Source: a virus
Length of the DNA stretch: 64,000 bases
Reading direction: 5' to 3' (one strand)
Virus record (IMG/VR): IMGVR_UViG_3300022554_000002
Span: 130,474 to 194,473 of that record
In this document: positions 3,379 to 63,390 of the stretch, piece by piece
How positions within the stretch are numbered: the first letter of the stretch is position 1
Layout: each line of letters begins with the position of its first letter
Position numbers and translations under genes: made by a program
The notes under the pieces: generated by a model
Seen by the model: only the letters and a program-made list of their open reading frames with translations
Databases searched by the model: none
Told to the model about the DNA's origin: nothing

Positions 3379-5904
3379 TTATGCGTCCTTTCCTCTTGGG
3401 TCAAACCATCCATACGTCCACATGCAAGCAACCGATTGTTTCGTATTTGCTCGCATTCTCAATTGTGCAGATGTATTTGTTCTAAAAATATTTCCTGCTG
3501 GTCCCTGCGTTACGCCAGTTCCTCCCTCCGTCACTTGCAGCGAATTTTGATTTCCGTTAGCAGGCGCGACATCGGTAACAAGTGGTGATGACGTATACGT
3601 TGATATTGTGTTTAATGCTTTATATCCGTATGTTGTTACTTGCGCTAGAACTTCAACACCTGTGGGGACACTTATTGTGTACAACGTTGCACTGGTGCCT
3701 AATGTTGCCGATGCATTTACGTCGTATACAGGCGTCTTCCACAGGAACAAATCACCATACTGTGTATAGGCGATAATATTTGCACTTCCATTCGTCAATA
3801 CTGCACCAATTCTTCGTTTGAAATCATAGTTTGCTGGCATTGTTGGTGCTGTTGCAGATGTACTGAATAACGCATCAACTACACCCGTATCACTACGCTT
3901 AATTAGCCACACATGGTACCATGTAGCATTGCCAACTGAGCCTGTATCAAGACCACCATTGCCCGAACCTACAGCCCATGACGCATCAATTCTCTTTGTT
4001 ATTGCTGCTGACAAAACTAAATCAGCAGCATTTGTAGAATCCCTACAGGCACCAGCGGCAATATCAATATTATGGTCTGCATCTGTTCCATTATTACTGG
4101 TGATTAATCCGTCAATATATCCACGTGGCAAGCCTGTAGCAGTTGATCCAGTGGTCATAGCCCTACGCATGGTTTCAATACCAGATGCATAATTCTTAGT
4201 ATATGCAATATCGGCGTGGTCATAGGTAATTTCGTGACTATGAACTGCACCATATTGTTCAGCGAAACCTTGCCATGATTGTACGCCGTCTGCTGGATTC
4301 TTATAAACGTAATATGATTGTCCATTGCCAACATTAATGCTGAACCACTGAGTGCCGGAATCTAGTGTATTTGCCGCTGGACGATCTGCATGTAATCCAT
4401 AGAGGATTTTAGAACCTACCCACATTCTACGCATGGTTTCAATACCAGATGCATAGGTAGTTAGTGCTGTAGTATCGCCACCAGTAACCATTGCACGTCT
4501 TAAAGTTTCGATACCTGAAGCATATTCTGTTAACTCTTGTAAATCAACAATAACACCAGATAGTGTATTAGTATTTGATGTTAATTCATTTTGTACAAGA
4601 ATTAATTGACCATTAATACCAGATGCATAGGTTGTTACTGCTGTGGTATCACCACCAGTAACCATTTGCCTACGCATAGATTCAATACCAGAGGCATATG
4701 CTTCTATTGCTGTGGTGTCACCACCAGTAGAGGAACCAGAAACACCATTTAAAACACCACGGTAGCTAACTACGATGCCTTTTGTGTCACTAATGGCAAT
4801 CATTACAGGTTTTGAAATAGTACCGCTTGTAATTGGTTCAGTTGGTGTTAACTCACCTAAGTTATCAGCAGACAGGAAGTACACAATACCGGGAATTAAA
4901 CCGCTTTGATTTTCAATTTCACCCTCAAATACAGCAGTAAATTGATTACCTGATGTAGATTCAATGATAGCAACTGATTCAGCAGTAACAATATTGTCTG
5001 CTTTAGCTTTTGCCCACTGTTCACCAGTGGTTCTATAAATTGCATTTAATGCAGAAAAATCGTGTGTTTGAATATAAGTTTGACGAATGCTTGATCCGGT
5101 AGCCGTAGACGTACCACCAGCAGGTCTTGCACCTATTCCTGAAGCATATTCTGTTAACTCTCTTAAATCAGTAATAATGCCTGATGTTGTATTAGTATTT
5201 GATGTTAATTCATTTTGTACAAGAATTAATTGATTATTGATACCAGATGCATAAGATTCTAACACAGGATTGGAAGAAACCATGACCCGACGCATAGACT
5301 CAATACCGGATGCGTAGGATTCAATTTCTCGTGAATCAATAATTAATCCCGATAATGTATTACTAGCAGCAGTTTGATTTATTTGAATTACATTTAGTAG
5401 CGTTTTTGTTCCAGAAGCATAACCAGTAATATAGTAAATATTTGATTGGTTAACAATTGCTAACGCACCAATACCAGATATATATGGTTCTAGTGCTGGA
5501 TTTGAACCACCACCAGACAAAATCATTGAATCTACATAATGTTTATTAGTTAAATCGGCAGGAATGGTTGGCCAACGATATTGTAACGCTCTTTCAAAGG
5601 ATTTAATACCAGATAAATTCTGGTTTCCTTGAGTTCTAATATATGTAATAATGTCGGCTAAGTGGGCAGATGTTATAACACCAGAAGCAATATTTTCTGG
5701 AACTGTAATAATCTCGCCTAAGTCGGTTCCAGAGGTTAATTTATCTCCGGTAATAGTCCCATTGGCTATTAATTCGTTAGTGATTGCTTCTAAGGAGATG
5801 TGTCTTGTTTGAATATAACCATCTTGTATGTCAGGATTTGGGTAAGCACCTTGTAAGGCACCACCCGCAGCATCACCATATCTAATTGGGTCAGTTAAAG
5901 CCAA
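3379..5904 (-). CDS. Tail fibre protein, 841 aa, TTG start
   Basis: Gly/Ser/Thr-rich; PTIPADLTNKHYVD motif; about ten YASG(I) repeats; C-terminal GYIDGL...IDIAAGACRD...TWYHVWLI...KRRIG module common in phage fibres. Confidence 0.75.
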   Translation of the reverse strand: MALTDPIRYGDAAGGALQGAYPNPDIQDGYIQTRHISLEAITNELIANGTITGDKLTSGTDLGEIITVPENIASGVITSAHLADIITYIRTQGNQNLSGIKSFERALQYRWPTIPADLTNKHYVDSMILSGGGSNPALEPYISGIGALAIVNQSNIYYITGYASGTKTLLNVIQINQTAASNTLSGLIIDSREIESYASGIESMRRVMVSSNPVLESYASGINNQLILVQNELTSNTNTTSGIITDLRELTEYASGIGARPAGGTSTATGSSIRQTYIQTHDFSALNAIYRTTGEQWAKAKADNIVTAESVAIIESTSGNQFTAVFEGEIENQSGLIPGIVYFLSADNLGELTPTEPITSGTISKPVMIAISDTKGIVVSYRGVLNGVSGSSTGGDTTAIEAYASGIESMRRQMVTGGDTTAVTTYASGINGQLILVQNELTSNTNTLSGVIVDLQELTEYASGIETLRRAMVTGGDTTALTTYASGIETMRRMWVGSKILYGLHADRPAANTLDSGTQWFSINVGNGQSYYVYKNPADGVQSWQGFAEQYGAVHSHEITYDHADIAYTKNYASGIETMRRAMTTGSTATGLPRGYIDGLITSNNGTDADHNIDIAAGACRDSTNAADLVLSAAITKRIDASWAVGSGNGGLDTGSVGNATWYHVWLIKRSDTGVVDALFSTSATAPTMPANYDFKRRIGAVLTNGSANIIAYTQYGDLFLWKTPVYDVNASATLGTSATLYTISVPTGVEVLAQVTTYGYKALNTISTYTSSPLVTDVAPANGNQNSLQVTEGGTGVTQGPAGNIFRTNTSAQLRMRANTKQSVACMWTYGWFDPRGKDA
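4514..5253. repeat. Internal duplication in the tail fibre gene (4514-4629 and 5138-5253)
   Basis: Two similar blocks of about 116 bp, 624 bp apart (in frame), sharing cctgaagcatattctgttaactct and tgtattagtatttgatgttaattcattttgtacaagaattaattga. Confidence 0.9.
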
Positions 5905-49880: not shown

Positions 49881-50173
49881 GCCGGAATGGCGGAACAGGA
49901 AGACGCTACGGACTTTTTAATGGGTCGCTTATAGGGAAACCTATAAGTAAGTAACCTGTCAAATTCGGTAAACGCTGAAATGCCAATACCGAGCTAACTG
50001 CACTAAGTGCAGGAATGTGTAGAGACTAAACGGCAGGAATCTAAACCTAGAGATAGGCATGATTAAGATATAGTCCAGACCACAAACCTAACAGGGTAGC
50101 GAAAGCTATAGTGGTAGGTAAAATCCGTTCTCCCCAAAAGGAGGTGTGGGTTCAAATCCCACTTCCGGCACCA
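49881..50173 (+). tRNA. trnL: tRNA-Leu(UAA) interrupted by a group I intron
   Basis: Exons 49881-49914 and 50119-50173 join to ACGGA-CTTAAAA-TCCGT; acceptor GCCGGAA/TTCCGGC; long variable arm; encoded CCA. Confidence 0.92.
49915..50118 (+). ncRNA. Group I self-splicing intron (IC3-like), 204 nt, no internal ORF
   Basis: P1 GACT/GGTC with U.G at the splice site; P AAATTCGGTAAAC, Q AATACCGAGC, R GTGTAGAGACTAAA, S AAGATATAGTCC; P3 CCTGTC/GGCAGG; GAAA tetraloops; terminal G. Confidence 0.92.
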
Positions 50174-55123: not shown

Positions 55124-56254
55124 ATGATTTCTGAAACTCCCCTACAGGCATATCTACGCTCTGTCACTAAAGAACATAATGCAGAGTTGGCATTAGAGTT
55201 ACTTACAACAAAGTATGGTATTAATGTTTATAAGCATCCTACTCTGCCTCTGGTTGGGTTTAAATATAATCAAATTGAATCTCCTAAGTATGATCCTATC
55301 GTTCGCTGGTCACGTGGAACTGTGTTGGAATATGAAACATGGAACCTAGTGGCACAGGGAATGAAGCGTTTTTATAATTGGGGCGAGTCTCCAATTGAAA
55401 TGGAAATGTTCAATTGGAACTTCTTTCAAGCTACAGGCAAAGAAGACGGAAGCTTAATACTTCTCTATAATTATAATAATGAATGGCATGTAAACACTTC
55501 TGGTTCATTTGGTTTTGGTACAATTAATGACACAAATATTATTTGGCGTGATTTATTTTGGAAAACATTTGAAAAGCAGGGAATGCGACGAGATATATTG
55601 GTTAAAGGGTTAACCTATATTTTTGAGCTTTGCAGTCCTTATAACAAAGTTGTACGTTTATACACTGAACCTAAACTGTTTCATATTACAACATTTATAG
55701 ATGATAAAGAAATTGGACTGCCATATGGAGAGGCTATTGGTTGTACTCCTGTAACTACTTATGCACTAAATAGTTATGAAGATGTTGTTGCCTTCATTAA
55801 AGAAAAGGAGCACACAGATTCTACTTTTGAAGGATTGGTATTACGAGACAATAATGGTATTCGTTTTAAAGTAAAGACTACCACTTATGTAAATTTGCAC
55901 CATTTGCATGATAATGGTAATATTTACAGTCTAAAGCGATTAGTACCCATTGTGCTTAAAGCTGAACAGGATGAAGTTGCCGCTGTATTTCCTGAATTGC
56001 AGGATAAGTTTCAGGTTATTAAGGGACAGTTGGATGGTATTTATAATAACCTGCGAGACTTGTGGGCATTCACTAAAGATATTGAAAACCAGAAAGACTT
56101 TGCGCTTGCCATTGCTGCGCATCCTATGAAAGGCTTGCTGTTTATGGTTCGCAAGGTGCATGGTAAGAATCAGACAGAGACACACCTAAAGAATCTTTGG
56201 TGTGATTCTGCTGATTTGATTTTGAAATATTATGAGAATGTTCTTGACAAATAG
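55124..56254 (+). CDS. RNA ligase, T4 Rnl1-like
   Basis: FKY...RG, MKRFYN, motif I KEDGS, FELCSPYN, FEGLV, FKVK..YV.LH. Confidence 0.88.
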   Translation: MISETPLQAYLRSVTKEHNAELALELLTTKYGINVYKHPTLPLVGFKYNQIESPKYDPIVRWSRGTVLEYETWNLVAQGMKRFYNWGESPIEMEMFNWNFFQATGKEDGSLILLYNYNNEWHVNTSGSFGFGTINDTNIIWRDLFWKTFEKQGMRRDILVKGLTYIFELCSPYNKVVRLYTEPKLFHITTFIDDKEIGLPYGEAIGCTPVTTYALNSYEDVVAFIKEKEHTDSTFEGLVLRDNNGIRFKVKTTTYVNLHHLHDNGNIYSLKRLVPIVLKAEQDEVAAVFPELQDKFQVIKGQLDGIYNNLRDLWAFTKDIENQKDFALAIAAHPMKGLLFMVRKVHGKNQTETHLKNLWCDSADLILKYYENVLDK

Positions 56255-57505: not shown

Positions 57506-58174
57506 ATGACTCTTAATGAACTTAAGAAGATTTTTCCTTATGCCACAAATGACACGTGGCATCAGCACAATAACGGCGGTGGTTGGGTGCAGAAGACAGC
57601 AGAAGTTGCTGATACAGCATATGTAGGTGTTAGTGCACTAGTTTGTGATAATGCACGAGTTTGTGATAATGCACGAGTTTGTGATAATGCACAAGTTTAT
57701 GGTGATGCACAAGTTTGTGGTGATGCACAAGTTTGTGATAATGCACGAGTTTATGGTAATGCACGAGTTTATGGTAATGCACGAGTTTGTGGTAATGCAC
57801 GAGTTTGTGGTGATGCACAAGTTTGTGGTAATGCAGTAGTTTATGGTAATGCACGAGTTTATGGTGATGCACAAGTTTATGGTGATGCACAAGTTTATGG
57901 TAATATGCAACTTATTGATAATAAGTGGGATTTCTCTCCCCTTAGTATCATTGGTTGCAAGTATACCATGAATGTTGTAGCATATGGCAAAATTAGCATA
58001 GGTTGCAAAATTCATACAATTGATAAATGGAAACGTATTGGTAAACAACTTGCTAAGAGTGAAGGATTGACGAAGCAAGAATTGAGTGATTTTGTGAACG
58101 CTTTTAAGTTTGCCATTACTTGGATGAAAAACCATAAAGTTAGTAAGAATTCTCTTGACAATAGCAAAGTTTAA
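57506..58174 (+). CDS. Hexapeptide-repeat (left-handed beta-helix-like) protein, copy 1
   Basis: 15 units of V(C/Y)(D/G)(N/D)A(R/Q) encoded by 18-bp tandem repeats. Confidence 0.85.
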   Translation: MTLNELKKIFPYATNDTWHQHNNGGGWVQKTAEVADTAYVGVSALVCDNARVCDNARVCDNAQVYGDAQVCGDAQVCDNARVYGNARVYGNARVCGNARVCGDAQVCGNAVVYGNARVYGDAQVYGDAQVYGNMQLIDNKWDFSPLSIIGCKYTMNVVAYGKISIGCKIHTIDKWKRIGKQLAKSEGLTKQELSDFVNAFKFAITWMKNHKVSKNSLDNSKV

Positions 58175-58253
58175 TGTATAATACTTAATGTGAGGAATGG
58201 TCGAAGTAAGGAAAAAGCCATCTATATCCCGAAATGGGAAAGGAGAAACGAAA

Positions 58254-58733
58254 ATGGCTAACACGATTAAGTTTGACCGGAATAAGATGCACGAGTTGAG
58301 GATGGAAGGAAAGACGTTGCAGCAAATCGCTGGTGCGATGAAGTGCAGTTTGGGTACGGTTGCCAATGCTATGCGTGGCATCTATGGCAAGCGTGATGCT
58401 GCTGGTCGTCGTCCGTCGTTTGCCCATGTTGGAATTATTGAGGCTTACAAGAAGAATCCCAACATGGCGGCAATTGCTGCTGAGTTTAAGTGTAGCTATG
58501 GTACGGTTCGTAATGTGGTTAAGAAGGCTGGACTTCCCATTGGTCCGCGTGGTCGAAAGCCGAAGGTTGTTGAACCTACGGTTACCAACGTTGTTCCGGT
58601 TACCGAACCGGCACAGGTTGTTGATGCTGCTGCGGTTACCCCCGCTGTTGAGGTTACTCCTGCTCCGGTTGTAGAAGTGACTCCTGCTGTTCAGGTTCCT
58701 ACTACGGAAACTCCTACTACCCCCGTTCAGTAG
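58254..58733 (+). CDS. Tandem helix-turn-helix protein with Pro/Thr/Val-rich tail
   Basis: TLQQIAGAMKCSLGTVAN and MAAIAAEFKCSYGTVRN; start moved to the ATG after SD AAGGAG. Confidence 0.75.
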   Translation: MANTIKFDRNKMHELRMEGKTLQQIAGAMKCSLGTVANAMRGIYGKRDAAGRRPSFAHVGIIEAYKKNPNMAAIAAEFKCSYGTVRNVVKKAGLPIGPRGRKPKVVEPTVTNVVPVTEPAQVVDAAAVTPAVEVTPAPVVEVTPAVQVPTTETPTTPVQ

Positions 58734-58742
58734 GAATGAAAA

Positions 58743-58794
58743 AGGGATTAGTCAATAGTATGGCAAATCGTCTGCCAGAACTTGACTAATCCCT
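58743..58794. repeat. 13-bp hairpin preceding the tRNA-like pair
   Basis: AGGGATTAGTCAA/TTGACTAATCCCT with inner TGGCA/TGCCA. Confidence 0.8.
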
Positions 58795-58803
58795 TGATCT
58801 TAT

Positions 58804-58920
58804 GGGGCGGCTGACAGGCATACAAGAGATGCCACCTTTGTCAAAAGGAGAGCCAAGCACATTTGATCAGTGTGCTTCCCGTTTGGGATACTGTTGGTGC
58901 AAATCCAACCTTCCCCACCA
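58804..58920 (+). ncRNA. tRNA-like RNA with extra arms and encoded CCA, no canonical anticodon arm
   Basis: GGGGCGG/CTTCCCC-A-CCA; T-arm GTTGG-TGCAAAT-CCAAC; four internal hairpins. Confidence 0.65.
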
Positions 58921-58927
58921 AACTTAC

Positions 58928-59008
58928 AGGGCGGAAAGTCTGGTTGACTCGGCGGGGCTTATATCCTCGCGTCATTGCAGTTGGGTTCGATCCCCACCCG
59001 CCCTACCA
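58928..59008 (+). tRNA. Atypical tRNA-Ile(UAU)
   Basis: Acceptor AGGGCGG/CCGCCCT-A-CCA; D-arm AGTC/GACT; anticodon arm CGGGG-CTTATAT-CCTCG; T-loop TTCGATC; enlarged variable region. Confidence 0.7.
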
Positions 59009-59030
59009 TAAAAATGAAAAGGATAATGGT

Positions 59031-59594
59031 ATGAAAATGACTGAGGAACTTTGGCTGGAATTAGGTTTTCGTTTTGAACGTTGGTTTGGTGCTGAAAAAA
59101 GTTGGGGAATGTCAGTTGGTAGAGAACTTGTTCATTTTCCCAGTTATAAATTTAAGGAAATACCCACTTTAAATTTTGTAGTTGCTGAACTTATAGCTGT
59201 TCAAAAACGTATTGCATTCCATGAAGGTGAAGAATGCATCAGGAATCAATTAAAAAGCTTATTGAATATTGAAAATAACTCTTGACAAAGGACAATTGAT
59301 TCTGTATAATAAAACTAAAGGAGATTGATTATGAAACTTTTTAAGCAGACTTTCACTGTAAGTGGTAGTTATCCTTTTCCGATGGATATGCTTCGTTATG
59401 ACCGTGCTTGTCCTGATACTGAAACTGATTCTGGTGTAATTGCACGTTCCATTGAGCATCCTTATGATAAGAATTATCAGGTTAGTGTCCTTCGTTACGT
59501 AACTGAAAAGACTAACCTGCCAACGTCTGAGCGTTGGAAGTCTTTTGGTTGGACGGTTGATGAAATGTCAATTAAAACTGAGGAGGTTTATTAA
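59031..59594 (+). CDS. Two hypothetical proteins (59031-59285, 59325-59594)
   Basis: First ORF trimmed to ATG 59031 to avoid the tRNAs; second has FPMDMLRYD and its own promoter. Confidence 0.65.
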
Positions 59595-59596
59595 TT

Positions 59597-59845
59597 GTGA
59601 AAAACAAAAAAGAACATACATGGTATTGGGCATGTCGTCAACTAATTAATGGATTAAGGGTTAGACGTAGTTACTGGCGAAATAATGACTTTCACCTTGT
59701 TATGAGCATGAATGTAAATTTTGCATTGCATGGACAACGATTGTGTGGTGTTGACAGTCCTTCTGGTGTTCCTATGCCTTACACAGTTTATCTAAATGAT
59801 TTAGTTGCTGTGGATTGGGAGATTTATGGAAATGATAAAAGTTAA
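59597..59845 (+). CDS. DUF2829/Tad2-like protein
   Basis: A...L..G.RVRR..W at the N-terminus and D.VA.DWEI at the C-terminus. Confidence 0.6.
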   Translation: MKNKKEHTWYWACRQLINGLRVRRSYWRNNDFHLVMSMNVNFALHGQRLCGVDSPSGVPMPYTVYLNDLVAVDWEIYGNDKS

Positions 59846-59877: not shown

Positions 59878-61029
59878 ATGGAACGCCAATTAGCAACAAT
59901 TCAAAGAATTCTTGAAGTCAAGAATCATCCTAATGCTGACAAACTGGACCTTATCAAAGTTATGGGTTGGCAGTTAGTATCTAAACGGGATGAATTTAAA
60001 ATTGGTGATTTGTGTGTTTTTGCAGAAATTGATTCTGTACTTCCTATCACGAATCCTAATTTTGCATTTCTTGAGAAGTCCAAAGGTCGAATTAAGACTA
60101 TTCGACTAAGAGGGGAATTGTCTCAAGGTATCGCATTTCCTGTAAGCATTTTATCTACACAAGTTGAAGAAGGAACAGATGTTACAGAATTGTTAGGTAT
60201 TACAAAATATGAACCTCCTGAACCGTCGCATAAAGGACAGAATTTTGGTAGCTTTGGTAAGTCACGTGGTAATTTTCCATCATTCATTCGTAAGACAGAT
60301 GAAATTCGATTGCAAAGTTGCCTTGGTGTATTGGATGAAATTGATGGTAAAGAATGTTATGTTACCATGAAACTTGATGGTTCAAGTTGTACTATCTATT
60401 CTAAAACTGATATTTCTGGCACGAGACGCCTTGGTGTTTGTTCCAGAAATATGGAAATGGATTTCAATTACGAAAATCCTAGTGGTCGGTTTTGTGAAAC
60501 TGTGCACAAATTTAAAATTGGAGAAAAATTAACTCAATATTGTGAAGAGAACAATGTTGATATTGCTGTTCAAGGTGAATTGGTTAGTGAAGGTATACAG
60601 GCTAACCGACTAGGTATGACAGGCTCAGATATTAGAATTTTTAATGGTTACAATATAAAGGAAGGCAGATACCTACACTGTGCAGAAATGCTTGATTTGG
60701 TTAAGCAGTTAGGTATTCTTACTGTACCCATTTTACAGATTGAGGGAAGCTATAAAAAGGTAATTCCTATATATACTCATAAATGGTTAAACAATGTTGA
60801 ATTTTATGTTTTCAAGTATGACAAGAATATTCATACTCTGGATTACTGGCTTAACTTTGCTGATAACCAGAAGTATAATTTTAATACCGTTGGCAGTAGA
60901 GAGGACTATGAGCATACGGCTGAAGGTGTTGTTATTCGCCCAATTGAAGAGTGTTACTCGCAAAGGCTTAAAGGTCGAATGTCCTTTAAGGTAATTAGTA
61001 ACAAGTATCTTTTGGAAATTGGAGAATAA
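59878..61029 (+). CDS. RNA ligase, DRB0094/Rnl2-like
   Basis: HPNADKL, IRLRGELSQG, TDEIR, motif I KLDGSS, QGELV, EGVV, FKVISNKYLL. Confidence 0.9.
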   Translation: MERQLATIQRILEVKNHPNADKLDLIKVMGWQLVSKRDEFKIGDLCVFAEIDSVLPITNPNFAFLEKSKGRIKTIRLRGELSQGIAFPVSILSTQVEEGTDVTELLGITKYEPPEPSHKGQNFGSFGKSRGNFPSFIRKTDEIRLQSCLGVLDEIDGKECYVTMKLDGSSCTIYSKTDISGTRRLGVCSRNMEMDFNYENPSGRFCETVHKFKIGEKLTQYCEENNVDIAVQGELVSEGIQANRLGMTGSDIRIFNGYNIKEGRYLHCAEMLDLVKQLGILTVPILQIEGSYKKVIPIYTHKWLNNVEFYVFKYDKNIHTLDYWLNFADNQKYNFNTVGSREDYEHTAEGVVIRPIEECYSQRLKGRMSFKVISNKYLLEIGE

Positions 61030-61221: not shown

Positions 61222-63390
61222 ATGAAAGTTGAAGTCTCTACGGTTGAATGCGAACGGAACATTGAAGGTGAACACCGGCAAATGGGAATTAAAAGTCCGC
61301 GTGTCATTGTGGACTTCATGGTAAATAAGCTGTATACGCACAAAATCAAAGCTATCACTCAGGAAATTAGTTGTAATGCTCGTGATGCACATCGTGAGGC
61401 TGGTTGTGCTGACCGTCCTATTGAGATTACTGTTCCTAACGCTATGACTCCTTTCTTCTCTGTAAAGGATTATGGCATTGGAATGAATTATGAACGTCTT
61501 ACCAATATTTATCAGTTCATTGGTGAATCCAGCAAGCGTGAAACCAATGAACAAACTGGTGGGTTTGGTATTGGTGCTAAGTGTCCTTGGGCTTATTCCG
61601 ATGTGTTCACTACTGAAACGGTTGCTTGGGAGAACAGCAAAAAGCTCAAGCGAACCTTGGTTCTTCATCGTACTCCTGAAAATGATATTAGTTTTGACAT
61701 TATTTCCTGTGAAGAAACTAACGAACCTACTGGCACGATTGTCAAGGTTCCAGTTAAGGAAGGCGATTATGGTTCGTTCCTGACTGAAACTCTTCGTGCT
61801 ACGTCTATGTGGAATCCTAAGCCCATTATCAAGGGTGCAAAGGAAGGCGAAGATTTTGAATGGAAGAAGTTTGATGTTTACCTTGCTGGAACTAATTGGA
61901 CGATTTATAAGAATTACGGCGATTCGTCTGATTTTGTTATGAATTTTGATGGAGTTCCTTATCCCATTGATGATGCACGATTTACAGATAATGATTCTCG
62001 TATTCTTCGTAATATGGTGAATTATTCTGATAAGTGCTTTGTTGTTAATGCGAATGTTGGAGAAATTAACGTTGCTTTGAACCGCGAAGCGTTGGAATAT
62101 TCGGAAAAAACCATCACACATATTAAGAAAAATATTGATGATTGCTTGAAGAGTTTGAAGGAATTTGCAATTAATGATATTATGTGCAAACAGTCTCTTC
62201 TTGAGGCTATGAAGACGTTCCATGAACATCATTCGGTTTTGGGACAGTTTATTCCCGACGTTTTGGAGTGGGTTTCTCCTACTGGTGAAAAGATTACCAT
62301 TAATCCTGCAACCTACATTCATATCAAGGGTACTGTTTATTCATACTACATGAATTGGAAAGGTCGTCTGAAACGTAGCCGTAACCGGACGATTGACTTG
62401 AACCGCCCATTGCTGACGTGTAAAGATGCAATTACTAATAATACAGATTATGAACCTGCTCGTTCTCAGATTTTGGGAATGATGGATGCTCTTGGTCATA
62501 ATAATGATGAAAAAACTGTGCAGGTTATTACGTCCTATGATTCTACGGATGAAAACACAGTTAATATTCTTAAGCAGAACAATCTTACTACCATTGAAAG
62601 CTATCCCCGCCGAAAGAATAAGCCACGAACAACGGGTGGTGGCGTCAGTACTCCTGTAAATATTGCACTTTGTTGGCAAATTCAAAAGTATACCCTTGAA
62701 CCTATGCCGTCCAATGATTACACATGGTCTGATTTTACTGGCAAAGCATACGTTCTTAAGGACACTGCTACGCAGTTTAATCTTACTAATAAGCATGATA
62801 ACTCTCTTGACCGATATTATTCAGTATCATTGGCAACTCATTTGGGTTTTGATGAAATTTATGCCATTCGTGAAAAAGATGAACAACAAGCCATAAAGAA
62901 TGGCATGGTAAGACTTTATGATGTATTGGTGAAAAAACATTCTGCAATCAGTGAAAAAGTTCTTAGTAGCGAAGATTATGAATTTCTAGACTCTCATAAG
63001 ATGAAAACCTTCCTGCCCGTTTTTAATCCTAAGATGTTTACTGAGGAATTGTTTAAGAATGACAAACACATTCTTCATAAGTTTGTGACTTTGTTTAAAG
63101 AAGCGTCTGAAATTAAAAAGAATATGTCTAGTTCCAGATATGATTACTCAAATTACTTGCTGTCTTCTGATAAGATTCGTCTTAATAAGAAAAACAAGAA
63201 AAAAACTACTCTAACGTTTGGATTGAACGTGCTTTACAAGCGAATTACTAGGCAATATCCTATGCTGAAAGTCAATCCTAAGCTTTTCTCTACAAATAGC
63301 TATCATTATCATATGAATGCTGTCAAGGATACAATGTGCCACGCTATTCAATACGTTAAATTGATTGATAAAGTGGGAAAAAGTGCTTGA
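61222..63390 (+). CDS. rIIA: rIIA-like protein (GHKL ATPase N-terminal domain)
   Basis: EISCNARDAH, VKDYGIGM, GGFGIGAK, EPTG..VKVPV, LNREAL. Confidence 0.75.
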   Translation: MKVEVSTVECERNIEGEHRQMGIKSPRVIVDFMVNKLYTHKIKAITQEISCNARDAHREAGCADRPIEITVPNAMTPFFSVKDYGIGMNYERLTNIYQFIGESSKRETNEQTGGFGIGAKCPWAYSDVFTTETVAWENSKKLKRTLVLHRTPENDISFDIISCEETNEPTGTIVKVPVKEGDYGSFLTETLRATSMWNPKPIIKGAKEGEDFEWKKFDVYLAGTNWTIYKNYGDSSDFVMNFDGVPYPIDDARFTDNDSRILRNMVNYSDKCFVVNANVGEINVALNREALEYSEKTITHIKKNIDDCLKSLKEFAINDIMCKQSLLEAMKTFHEHHSVLGQFIPDVLEWVSPTGEKITINPATYIHIKGTVYSYYMNWKGRLKRSRNRTIDLNRPLLTCKDAITNNTDYEPARSQILGMMDALGHNNDEKTVQVITSYDSTDENTVNILKQNNLTTIESYPRRKNKPRTTGGGVSTPVNIALCWQIQKYTLEPMPSNDYTWSDFTGKAYVLKDTATQFNLTNKHDNSLDRYYSVSLATHLGFDEIYAIREKDEQQAIKNGMVRLYDVLVKKHSAISEKVLSSEDYEFLDSHKMKTFLPVFNPKMFTEELFKNDKHILHKFVTLFKEASEIKKNMSSSRYDYSNYLLSSDKIRLNKKNKKKTTLTFGLNVLYKRITRQYPMLKVNPKLFSTNSYHYHMNAVKDTMCHAIQYVKLIDKVGKSA

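Follow-up and report, generated by a model that had tools for sequence, protein, structure and literature searches.

Phage-encoded tRNA-like RNAs without an anticodon have been known since RNAC and RNAD of phage T4, and they still lack an assigned function. RNAC (species 1 RNA, rnaC; 139 nt), for which no function has been assigned to date (PMC3014915, PMC9697503), is a small RNA encoded within a tRNA transcription unit of the phage. Its ends pair imperfectly in the manner of an acceptor, and it joins a T-arm of the tRNA type to a body of long hairpins, with no anticodon loop. RNAD (species 2 RNA, rnaD; 119 nt) lies in tandem within a tRNA cluster and carries a 3' ACCA, the final A of which follows the annotated end. 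No Rfam family exists for either RNA. YrlA, a noncoding RNA of approximately 110 nt that is sometimes phage borne and is linked to RNA-repair genes, likewise contains a tRNA-like module, but its ends form a Ro-binding stem and not a CCA-tailed acceptor. Finally, the tRNA-like domain of tmRNA unites an acceptor, a T-arm, and CCA without an anticodon.

Here, we describe a candidate of this kind, encoded on the plus strand at positions 58804-58920 of a 64,000-nt stretch of phage DNA (the window). The setting and the structural features of RNAC listed above are shared by the candidate, which is also of nearly the same length as RNAD, ends in ACCA, and lies in tandem with a tRNA. In contrast, RNAC has the standard UUCGAAU T-loop, encodes no CCA at its annotated end, and follows a tRNA cluster, whereas the candidate precedes a single tRNA. 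Furthermore, RNAC is conserved and has been shown to accumulate, while the candidate is an orphan known from sequence alone. RNAD differs in having no T-arm motif and a different fold. MAFFT alignment with rnaC and rnaD gave only scattered identities, and a blastn search of a collection that included T4 returned no such match. By this comparison, the candidate appears to be analogous, not homologous, to RNAC. Unlike tmRNA, it lacks both a tag reading frame and G3.U70, and its size is one-third that of tmRNA; ARAGORN searches for tmRNA, including -m at a relaxed threshold, yielded 0 genes. A comparison with YrlA, suggested in a preliminary description of this DNA, came back empty: neither the region nor the phage genome as a whole contained a match to model RF02553 at E<=10, and no TROVE/Ro gene (PF05731) was present in the complete 194-kb genome, while control genomes were positive.

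The window comprises bases 130474-194473 of the complete, 194,473-bp IMG/VR genome of an uncultured phage, which has direct terminal repeats and a low G+C content. The genome is T4-like in some traits, such as its Rnl1-type RNA ligase, its DRB0094/TIGR02306-type RNA ligase, and rIIA. The features of the neighborhood are as follows.

55124-56254: Rnl1-type RNA ligase
58155-58182, plus strand: perfect (12/12) sigma-70-type promoter
58197-58733, plus strand: gene for an HTH-domain protein (178-aa open reading frame [ORF], 159-aa form in public gene calls), matching HTH_38 and related HTH families
58743-58794, plus strand: 13-bp hairpin whose 26-nt loop holds an inner 5-bp hairpin; no U-tract, not called as a terminator
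58804-58920, plus strand: tRNA-like RNA in its 117-nt form, from direct reading and as preferred by folding energy
58928-59008, plus strand: tRNA-Ile(UAU), 81 nt, called by ARAGORN
59597-59845: Tad2-like ORF of 82 aa (Thoeris anti-defense 2 domain; Pfam score of 26.9 bits versus a cutoff of 25)
59878-61029: DRB0094/TIGR02306-type RNA ligase
61222-63390: rIIA

The 13-bp hairpin ends 9 nt before the tRNA-like RNA, and a 7-nt spacer separates the latter from tRNA-Ile(UAU), so that the setting given in the preliminary description (downstream of the hairpin and 7 nt ahead of the tRNA) agreed in all coordinates. The Tad2-like ORF lies between this RNA pair and the DRB0094-type ligase. After the promoter at 58155-58182, the next perfect sigma-70-type promoter is at 59282-59310, and between 58182 and 59282 we found no other plus-strand promoter scoring above 9/12 and no terminator-like site. 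From these sites, the HTH gene, the tRNA-like RNA, and tRNA-Ile are predicted to share one transcript, the most likely start of which is the promoter at 58155-58182. With no promoter or terminator between it and tRNA-Ile, cotranscription followed by tRNA-type processing would be the natural expectation.

In the window, ARAGORN called tRNA-Lys(UUU) in addition to tRNA-Ile(UAU); over the whole genome, it further called tRNA-Pro, tRNA-Ile(GAU), and one odd tRNA. When introns were allowed, it also called, at approximately 49881-50173, a tRNA-Leu(UAA) gene that contains a group I intron, with an Rfam Intron_gpI match of 61.5 bits at 49906-50099. Most genuine tRNAs of the phage encode CCA, and a gene for a CCA-adding enzyme is absent from the genome. 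The tRNA-Ile(UAU) is itself atypical, with a 6-bp anticodon stem, an 11-nt variable region, and a weak T-stem, and it scores under the Rfam tRNA threshold. One other tRNA-shaped RNA of the phage (45253-45422) was considered as a relative of the candidate and rejected, as its shell differs; no paralogue or repeated module of the RNA was found within the phage genome.

The elements of the candidate RNA, all on the plus strand, are as follows.

58804-58810: 5' strand of the acceptor in its outer form, with 6/7 pairs to 58910-58916
58817-58833: hairpin 1, a 5-bp stem with the 7-nt loop ACAAGAG (pairing probability, 0.96 to 1.0)
58835-58848: hairpin 2, a 5-bp stem with a GUCA tetraloop (pairing probability, 0.91 to 0.96)
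58855-58877: hairpin 3, a 7- to 9-bp stem (segment z = -2.7)
58878-58887: hairpin 4, a 3- to 4-bp stem with the 4-nt loop GUUU
58893-58909: T-arm, a 5-bp stem with the loop UGCAAAU
58910-58920: acceptor 3' strand, A discriminator (58917), and encoded CCA (58918-58920)

The RNA thus has the parts of a tRNA top half, namely a 7-bp acceptor, a 5-bp T-stem, a 7-nt T-loop, a discriminator, and CCA; the acceptor comprises five G-C pairs, one G.U pair, and one C.U mismatch. These elements had been reported in the preliminary description as an acceptor with one mismatch, an A discriminator, CCA, and a T-arm with loop TGCAAAT, and each was recovered at the same position. So were the four internal hairpins, all of which were found in the MFE fold and in the listed suboptimal folds. 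In the MFE fold, only the first four G-C pairs of the outer acceptor form, and bases 6 to 9 pair with 58851-58854. The pairing probability exceeded 0.9 in every helix checked (T-arm, hairpins 1 and 2). Folding of the whole RNA gave z = -2.2, with 3 of 200 dinucleotide shuffles folding equally well, and the two halves of the body gave z values of -1.8 and -2.7. The sequence shows that the acceptor/T-arm minihelix with ACCA reproduces a tRNA top half, while three or four hairpins, none with a usable anticodon loop, stand where the lower half would be. Hairpin 4 may correspond to the variable arm or to an anticodon arm that has been truncated. In hairpin 3, the loop contains the self-complementary UGAUCA; we gave no weight to kissing-loop dimers formed through it, as a 6-nt palindrome is expected in approximately 6% of 9-nt loops.

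With regard to the ends proposed in the preliminary description, the 3' end held, with ACCA at the tRNA offset, while the 5' end at 58804 did not stand alone, as there is a rival start at 58847. The 5' end is one that we infer, since a 5' strand with 6/7 complementarity is insignificant by itself: such heptamers occurred at approximately 1 to 3 per 200 nt in comparison loci (one to several within 220 nt). The rival start is the following feature.

58847-58853, plus strand: alternative, inner acceptor 5' strand (5/7 pairs, with A.C and C.C mismatches), giving a 74-nt RNA

It is unlikely that the mature RNA is this inner form (58847-58920), from which RNase P would have cut off the first 43 nt as a structured leader. 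Such an RNA would be a tRNA body with a long hairpin resembling a D-arm, a variable loop of 5 nt, and the T-arm, in which the anticodon arm is reduced to a stub; its other elements would have the lengths found in a class I tRNA. Indeed, ARAGORN at a relaxed threshold called its 70-nt body (58847-58916) with a 2-nt "anticodon." Likewise, the covariance model R1, which was built from 32 genuine tRNAs sharing the 17-nt T-arm, aligned end to end with 58847-58920 (28.9 bits; E value, 5.7e-8); in this alignment, the D-arm falls on hairpin 3, and hairpin 4 corresponds to an anticodon arm of 10 instead of 17 nt. However, most of this score came from the identical T-arm and CCA, and R1 could not have chosen the outer form; a covariance model penalizes a 43-nt insertion, so the preference of R1 for the inner form is not neutral. 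Moreover, the inner acceptor has two mismatches, and forcing it in the full transcript was 10.6 kcal/mol worse than the MFE because hairpin 2 is broken, and 8.2 kcal/mol worse than forcing the 7-bp outer acceptor. A D-stem between 58813-58816 and 58838-58841 was considered and rejected, as it formed only when the inner acceptor was forced. On these modeled energies, the 117-nt form is preferred as clearly the more probable of the two.

The T-arm links the RNA to tRNAs. Its exact 17-nt sequence occurs in more than 116 IMG/VR loci, and ARAGORN-called tRNAs accounted for 45 of the 98 distinct flanks; these were mainly tRNA-Met, -Cys, and -Ile(GAU), with a few tRNA-Gln and single tRNA-Tyr, -His, -Pro, and -Glu. 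The chance expectation of this 17-mer in the 64-kb window is approximately 1e-5, and it is then followed by ACCA at the exact tRNA offset. The last 28 nt of the RNA are approximately 89% identical to the 3' ends of phage tRNA-Tyr genes. In contrast, the acceptor 5' strand equals that of the neighboring tRNA-Ile at 6/7 positions, while the T-arm and the 3' strand do not match tRNA-Ile. No other tRNA of the phage has a UGCAAAU T-loop. The proposal of a CCA-ending tRNA-like RNA in tandem with a tRNA is therefore borne out by a T-arm identical to that of real phage tRNAs and by the placement of ACCA, and on this evidence 58804-58920 is a real, tRNA-derived gene.

The UGCAAAU T-loop, in which G replaces U55, is a feature of an elbow that is widespread in phage tRNAs (IMG/VR loci L002 to L117). 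The D-loop GG was missing in 44 of the 45 ARAGORN tRNAs with this T-loop, and A-G-Y-A-G was found in its place. Together, the two loops make up a distinct tRNA elbow variant. In the 32 tRNAs with the 17-nt T-arm, U8 and A14 were invariant and G15 was nearly so. At least eight RNAs of 100 to 125 nt with the same T-arm (L002, L004/L082, L031, L056, L059, L075, L086, and L113) were present in unrelated uncultured phages; they have a perfect or near-perfect 7-bp acceptor, and ARAGORN called 0 of them. In L002, L056, L059, and L113, the canonical D-arm is kept and an unrelated insert replaces the anticodon arm.

Both the phage tRNAs with the UGCAAAU loop and the 100- to 125-nt RNAs share with the candidate the 17-nt T-arm and the layout of acceptor and discriminator. 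They keep U8, a 3- to 4-bp D-stem two bases past the acceptor, and the A-G-Y-A-G D-loop. In the candidate, in contrast, positions 8 and 9 are C-U and are followed by four more unpaired bases, so that the first hairpin begins six bases past the acceptor; its stem is 5 bp long, there is no G15, and the insert is unrelated. Hairpin 1 may nevertheless be a displaced D-arm analogue in the outer form, since its loop begins with A and has A-G as its fourth and fifth bases, as do the D-loops that accompany the UGCAAAU T-loop, a likeness with a roughly 1-in-64 chance of being coincidence. The candidate thus has the acceptor and T-arm of a tRNA shell with an insert, and a D-arm only if hairpin 1 is counted as a displaced one; having no canonical D-arm, it would fit only loosely among tRNA-shaped RNAs with an insert in the anticodon arm.

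Two further arrangements came to light in these comparisons. In Vibrio phage BUCT194 (MZ447858.1, approximately 5290-5388), a cultured N4-like vibriophage, an unannotated RNA-like stretch of approximately 100 nt has a standard T-arm and the acceptor 3' strand of the candidate, followed by G and CCA; it has a 5' complement of approximately 5 bp and no cloverleaf. In IMGVR_UViG_3300031994_000701 (minus strand, locus positions of approximately 5290-5420), we found an apparent circularly permuted tRNA-Tyr(GUA) gene. It opens with the anticodon arm, which is followed by the T-arm, the acceptor 3' strand, and ACCA; after 4 bases come the matching acceptor 5' strand and the D-arm, and 7-nt complementary segments lie on both flanks.

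The Rfam tRNA model (RF00005) had no match to the candidate even at E<=10, and ARAGORN did not call it at default settings, at -ps80, or with introns allowed. The preliminary description had noted the absence of an anticodon loop, and this applies to both the 117- and 74-nt forms. None of the loops combines U33 with a purine at position 37: ACAAGAG has C at position 33, UUGAUCA (the 7-nt reading of the hairpin 3 loop) has C at position 37, and GUCA and GUUU are tetraloops. It is therefore highly improbable that the stretch is an aberrant decoding tRNA, e.g., one reading Ile codons via GAU in hairpin 3, or that it codes for protein. Although the 7-nt loop of hairpin 3 does present U33 and GAU, its stem would be of 8 bp, a canonical D-arm is missing, and the phage already encodes tRNA-Ile(GAU). 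Similarly, two ORFs (58802-59011 and 58863-59285) are open across the RNA, and the 140-aa ORF is used in one public gene call, but both extend across the conserved tRNA-Ile gene, Pfam gave no match for either, and no Shine-Dalgarno sequence was seen before the start at 58802. We therefore rejected the coding reading.

Searches for homologues were negative in all collections searched. With blastn, neither a 2-kb region nor the 117 nt had a homologue among 50,697 phage records (INPHARED). In IMG/VR, no homologue was found with an acceptor-gap-T-arm pattern, a purine/pyrimidine-tolerant pattern, or the exact 26-mer of the body, and the single pattern match was an ordinary tRNA-Met in the tRNA cluster of another phage. 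The tolerant pattern had 10 matches in JGI metagenomes, none like the body of the candidate, and the one fully parsed JGI family proved to be an ordinary tRNA-Thr(GGU), the D-arm of which satisfies the pattern. No homologue was found in GTDB genomes with the same pattern. Two further public contigs were 100% identical over 2.9 kb; the phage is thus present in more than one sample, but these contigs add no variation.

Relatives of the locus as such do exist. Whereas a search with the neighboring genes in IMG/VR yielded only distant RNA ligases without the RNA, protein searches identified four true relatives (L130, L147, L148, and L149), in which the RNA ligase homologues were 87% and 83% identical and the HTH protein was 67 to 78% identical. 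In one relative, a Lar-like gene lies close to the locus. In all four, the HTH gene is followed by the hairpin and then directly by tRNA-Ile(UAU), with the tRNA-like RNA being absent; in L147, the hairpin of which is most like that of the window, tRNA-Ile begins exactly at the position where the candidate starts. The positions of this hairpin and of the tRNA that follows it are listed below, together with that of the tRNA in an unrelated phage (L133).

Window: hairpin at 58743-58794, tRNA-Ile(UAU) at 58928-59008
L130: hairpin at 1548-1584, tRNA-Ile(UAU) at 1598-1672
L147: hairpin at 1670-1754, tRNA-Ile(UAU) at 1763-1858
L148: hairpin at approximately 706-770, tRNA-Ile(UAU) at 780-855
L149: hairpin at approximately 806-868
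L133: tRNA-Ile(UAU) at 4134-4228

The hairpin was kept in position in the five phages, with compensatory changes in the stem. Two pairs differ between the window and L130, L148 and L149 have a different stem sequence, and the loop module is duplicated in L147. The 10-nt spacer that follows the hairpin in L130 is the exact reverse complement of that in the window. In the related phages, tRNA-Ile(UAU) is kept in position but is highly variable in sequence, with complete genes of 75, 76, 81, and 96 nt; in L147 and the unrelated L133, it has a long type II variable arm, which is unusual for tRNA-Ile. tRNA-Ile(UAU) is the conserved occupant of the locus, with the gene itself being freely replaced or remodeled.

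As the RNA is absent from all four syntenic relatives, we regard it as a lineage-specific insertion or duplication. This raises the question of whether it is a functionless relic, i.e., a tRNA duplicated from or recombined next to tRNA-Ile that has lost its anticodon loop and gained unrelated sequence and is perhaps still processed. We consider such an origin less likely than a functional one but a serious rival, since the orphan status is accounted for with equal simplicity by a neutral tRNA-derived relic of recent origin. The lack of homologues in the collections searched agrees with it, as does the locus being a hot spot of tRNA turnover, where the relatives' tRNA-Ile(UAU) genes span 75 to 96 nt with very different sequences. 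The RNA is also chimera-like, with an acceptor 5' strand close to that of tRNA-Ile (6/7) and a 3' end closest to phage tRNA-Tyr; its acceptor has a mismatch, and R1 fits an inner tRNA with a cut-down anticodon arm. On the other hand, the T-arm is still 17/17 identical to the functional consensus and the ACCA is intact. Furthermore, the four internal helices are perfect, unlike what decay would leave, the approximately 43 extra structured nucleotides require insertion rather than loss, and the RNA outfolds 197 of 200 shuffles.

The order of elements in the relatives also bears on a possible action in cis. Punctuation of transcripts by tRNA-like elements is an established principle (PMC1920247), and the candidate is flanked, in one transcription unit, by a conserved hairpin at the end of an mRNA and by a tRNA. 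It could therefore act like the "t-elements" of plant mitochondria, with RNase P cleavage setting the 3' end of the HTH mRNA, which the upstream hairpin would protect, and freeing tRNA-Ile, while the RNA itself, once excised, would be without a role. However, such a signal would be redundant, because in the relatives tRNA-Ile directly after the hairpin offers an RNase P site at a distance of 9 to 13 nt, and we consider this explanation improbable.

The explanation that we tentatively favor, at somewhat less than an even chance, is that of a phage-specific, tRNA-derived, nondecoding RNA gene, the product of which would be cotranscribed with its neighbors, processed by RNase P, and act as a mimic of the tRNA top half. 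The RNA would be transcribed from the early-type promoter at 58155 along with the HTH gene and tRNA-Ile(UAU). Its 5' end would be released by host RNase P, most likely at G58804, and RNase P cleavage of the next tRNA together with exonuclease trimming of the 7-nt spacer would expose the encoded CCA, giving a stable RNA of approximately 117 nt as the end product. Our guess at its role is that it would divert, as a competitor or decoy, a protein recognizing the acceptor stem, the T-arm, and the CCA tail of tRNAs or would be a tRNA chassis on which its hairpins are displayed. It can be stated firmly that the RNA is unable to decode and that it presents the surface recognized by RNase P, by the CCA-adding enzyme, and by further proteins that bind the top half of tRNAs.

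Several lines of evidence argue for this top-half mimic. All structural elements are present and stable, and the outer acceptor form is 8 to 10 kcal/mol better than the inner one. The T-arm is identical at 17/17 positions to that of the 45 phage tRNAs called by ARAGORN, and ACCA stands at the tRNA offset in a phage that encodes CCA in most of its real tRNAs. No promoter or terminator parts the RNA from the upstream gene or from tRNA-Ile. The inserted hairpins are perfect helices (segment z values as given above) and not decayed ones. In addition, there is the company of RNA ligases, a Tad2-like protein, and rIIA and, in a relative, of a Lar-like gene, as well as the occurrence of other 100- to 125-nt tRNA-shaped RNAs with the same T-arm in unrelated phages and the precedent of T4 RNAC, with its acceptor and T-arm, missing anticodon, and place in a tRNA operon. 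Against it stands the lack of any homologue in INPHARED, IMG/VR, JGI, and GTDB, so that there is no covariation and no sign of selection; the four relatives with the same order of gene, hairpin, and tRNA-Ile lack the RNA, and its other copies are 100% identical. The C.U mismatch and G.U pair in the acceptor, the absence of U8, A14, and G15 from their usual places, and the statistically weak 5' end also count against it, and the decoy idea is based on context.

Previous research has shown that phage tRNAs counter tRNA-directed defenses (PMC10264068, PMC11555353) and that the immune nuclease Cas12a3 recognizes the acceptor stem, the T-arm, and the CCA tail (PMC12851939). Together with the gene neighborhood, these reports make a decoy or competitor the most attractive guess as to function. 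In its specific form, in which an abundant, nondecoding top half soaks up a host immune or toxin enzyme so that the real tRNAs are spared, an anti-defense decoy is a speculative and rather unlikely proposal. Its targets would be nucleases that, like Cas12a3, cut the tail or toxins directed at the acceptor, and its acquisition would be recent, inside a fast-changing counterdefense island.

The RNA was found in one phage only, with the two further copies being identical. To the anticodon-less phage RNAs, the candidate adds a case with an encoded CCA, the nonstandard UGCAAAU elbow, and the site between two RNA ligase genes beside a Tad2-like gene. Taken by itself, it is a single-lineage orphan and provides one data point for the wider question of anticodon-less phage RNAs. 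By analogy, it appears to belong with the long-known and unexplained tRNA-like RNAs of phages, and should RNAs of this type turn out to be decoys or chassis, the candidate would be a compact test case.
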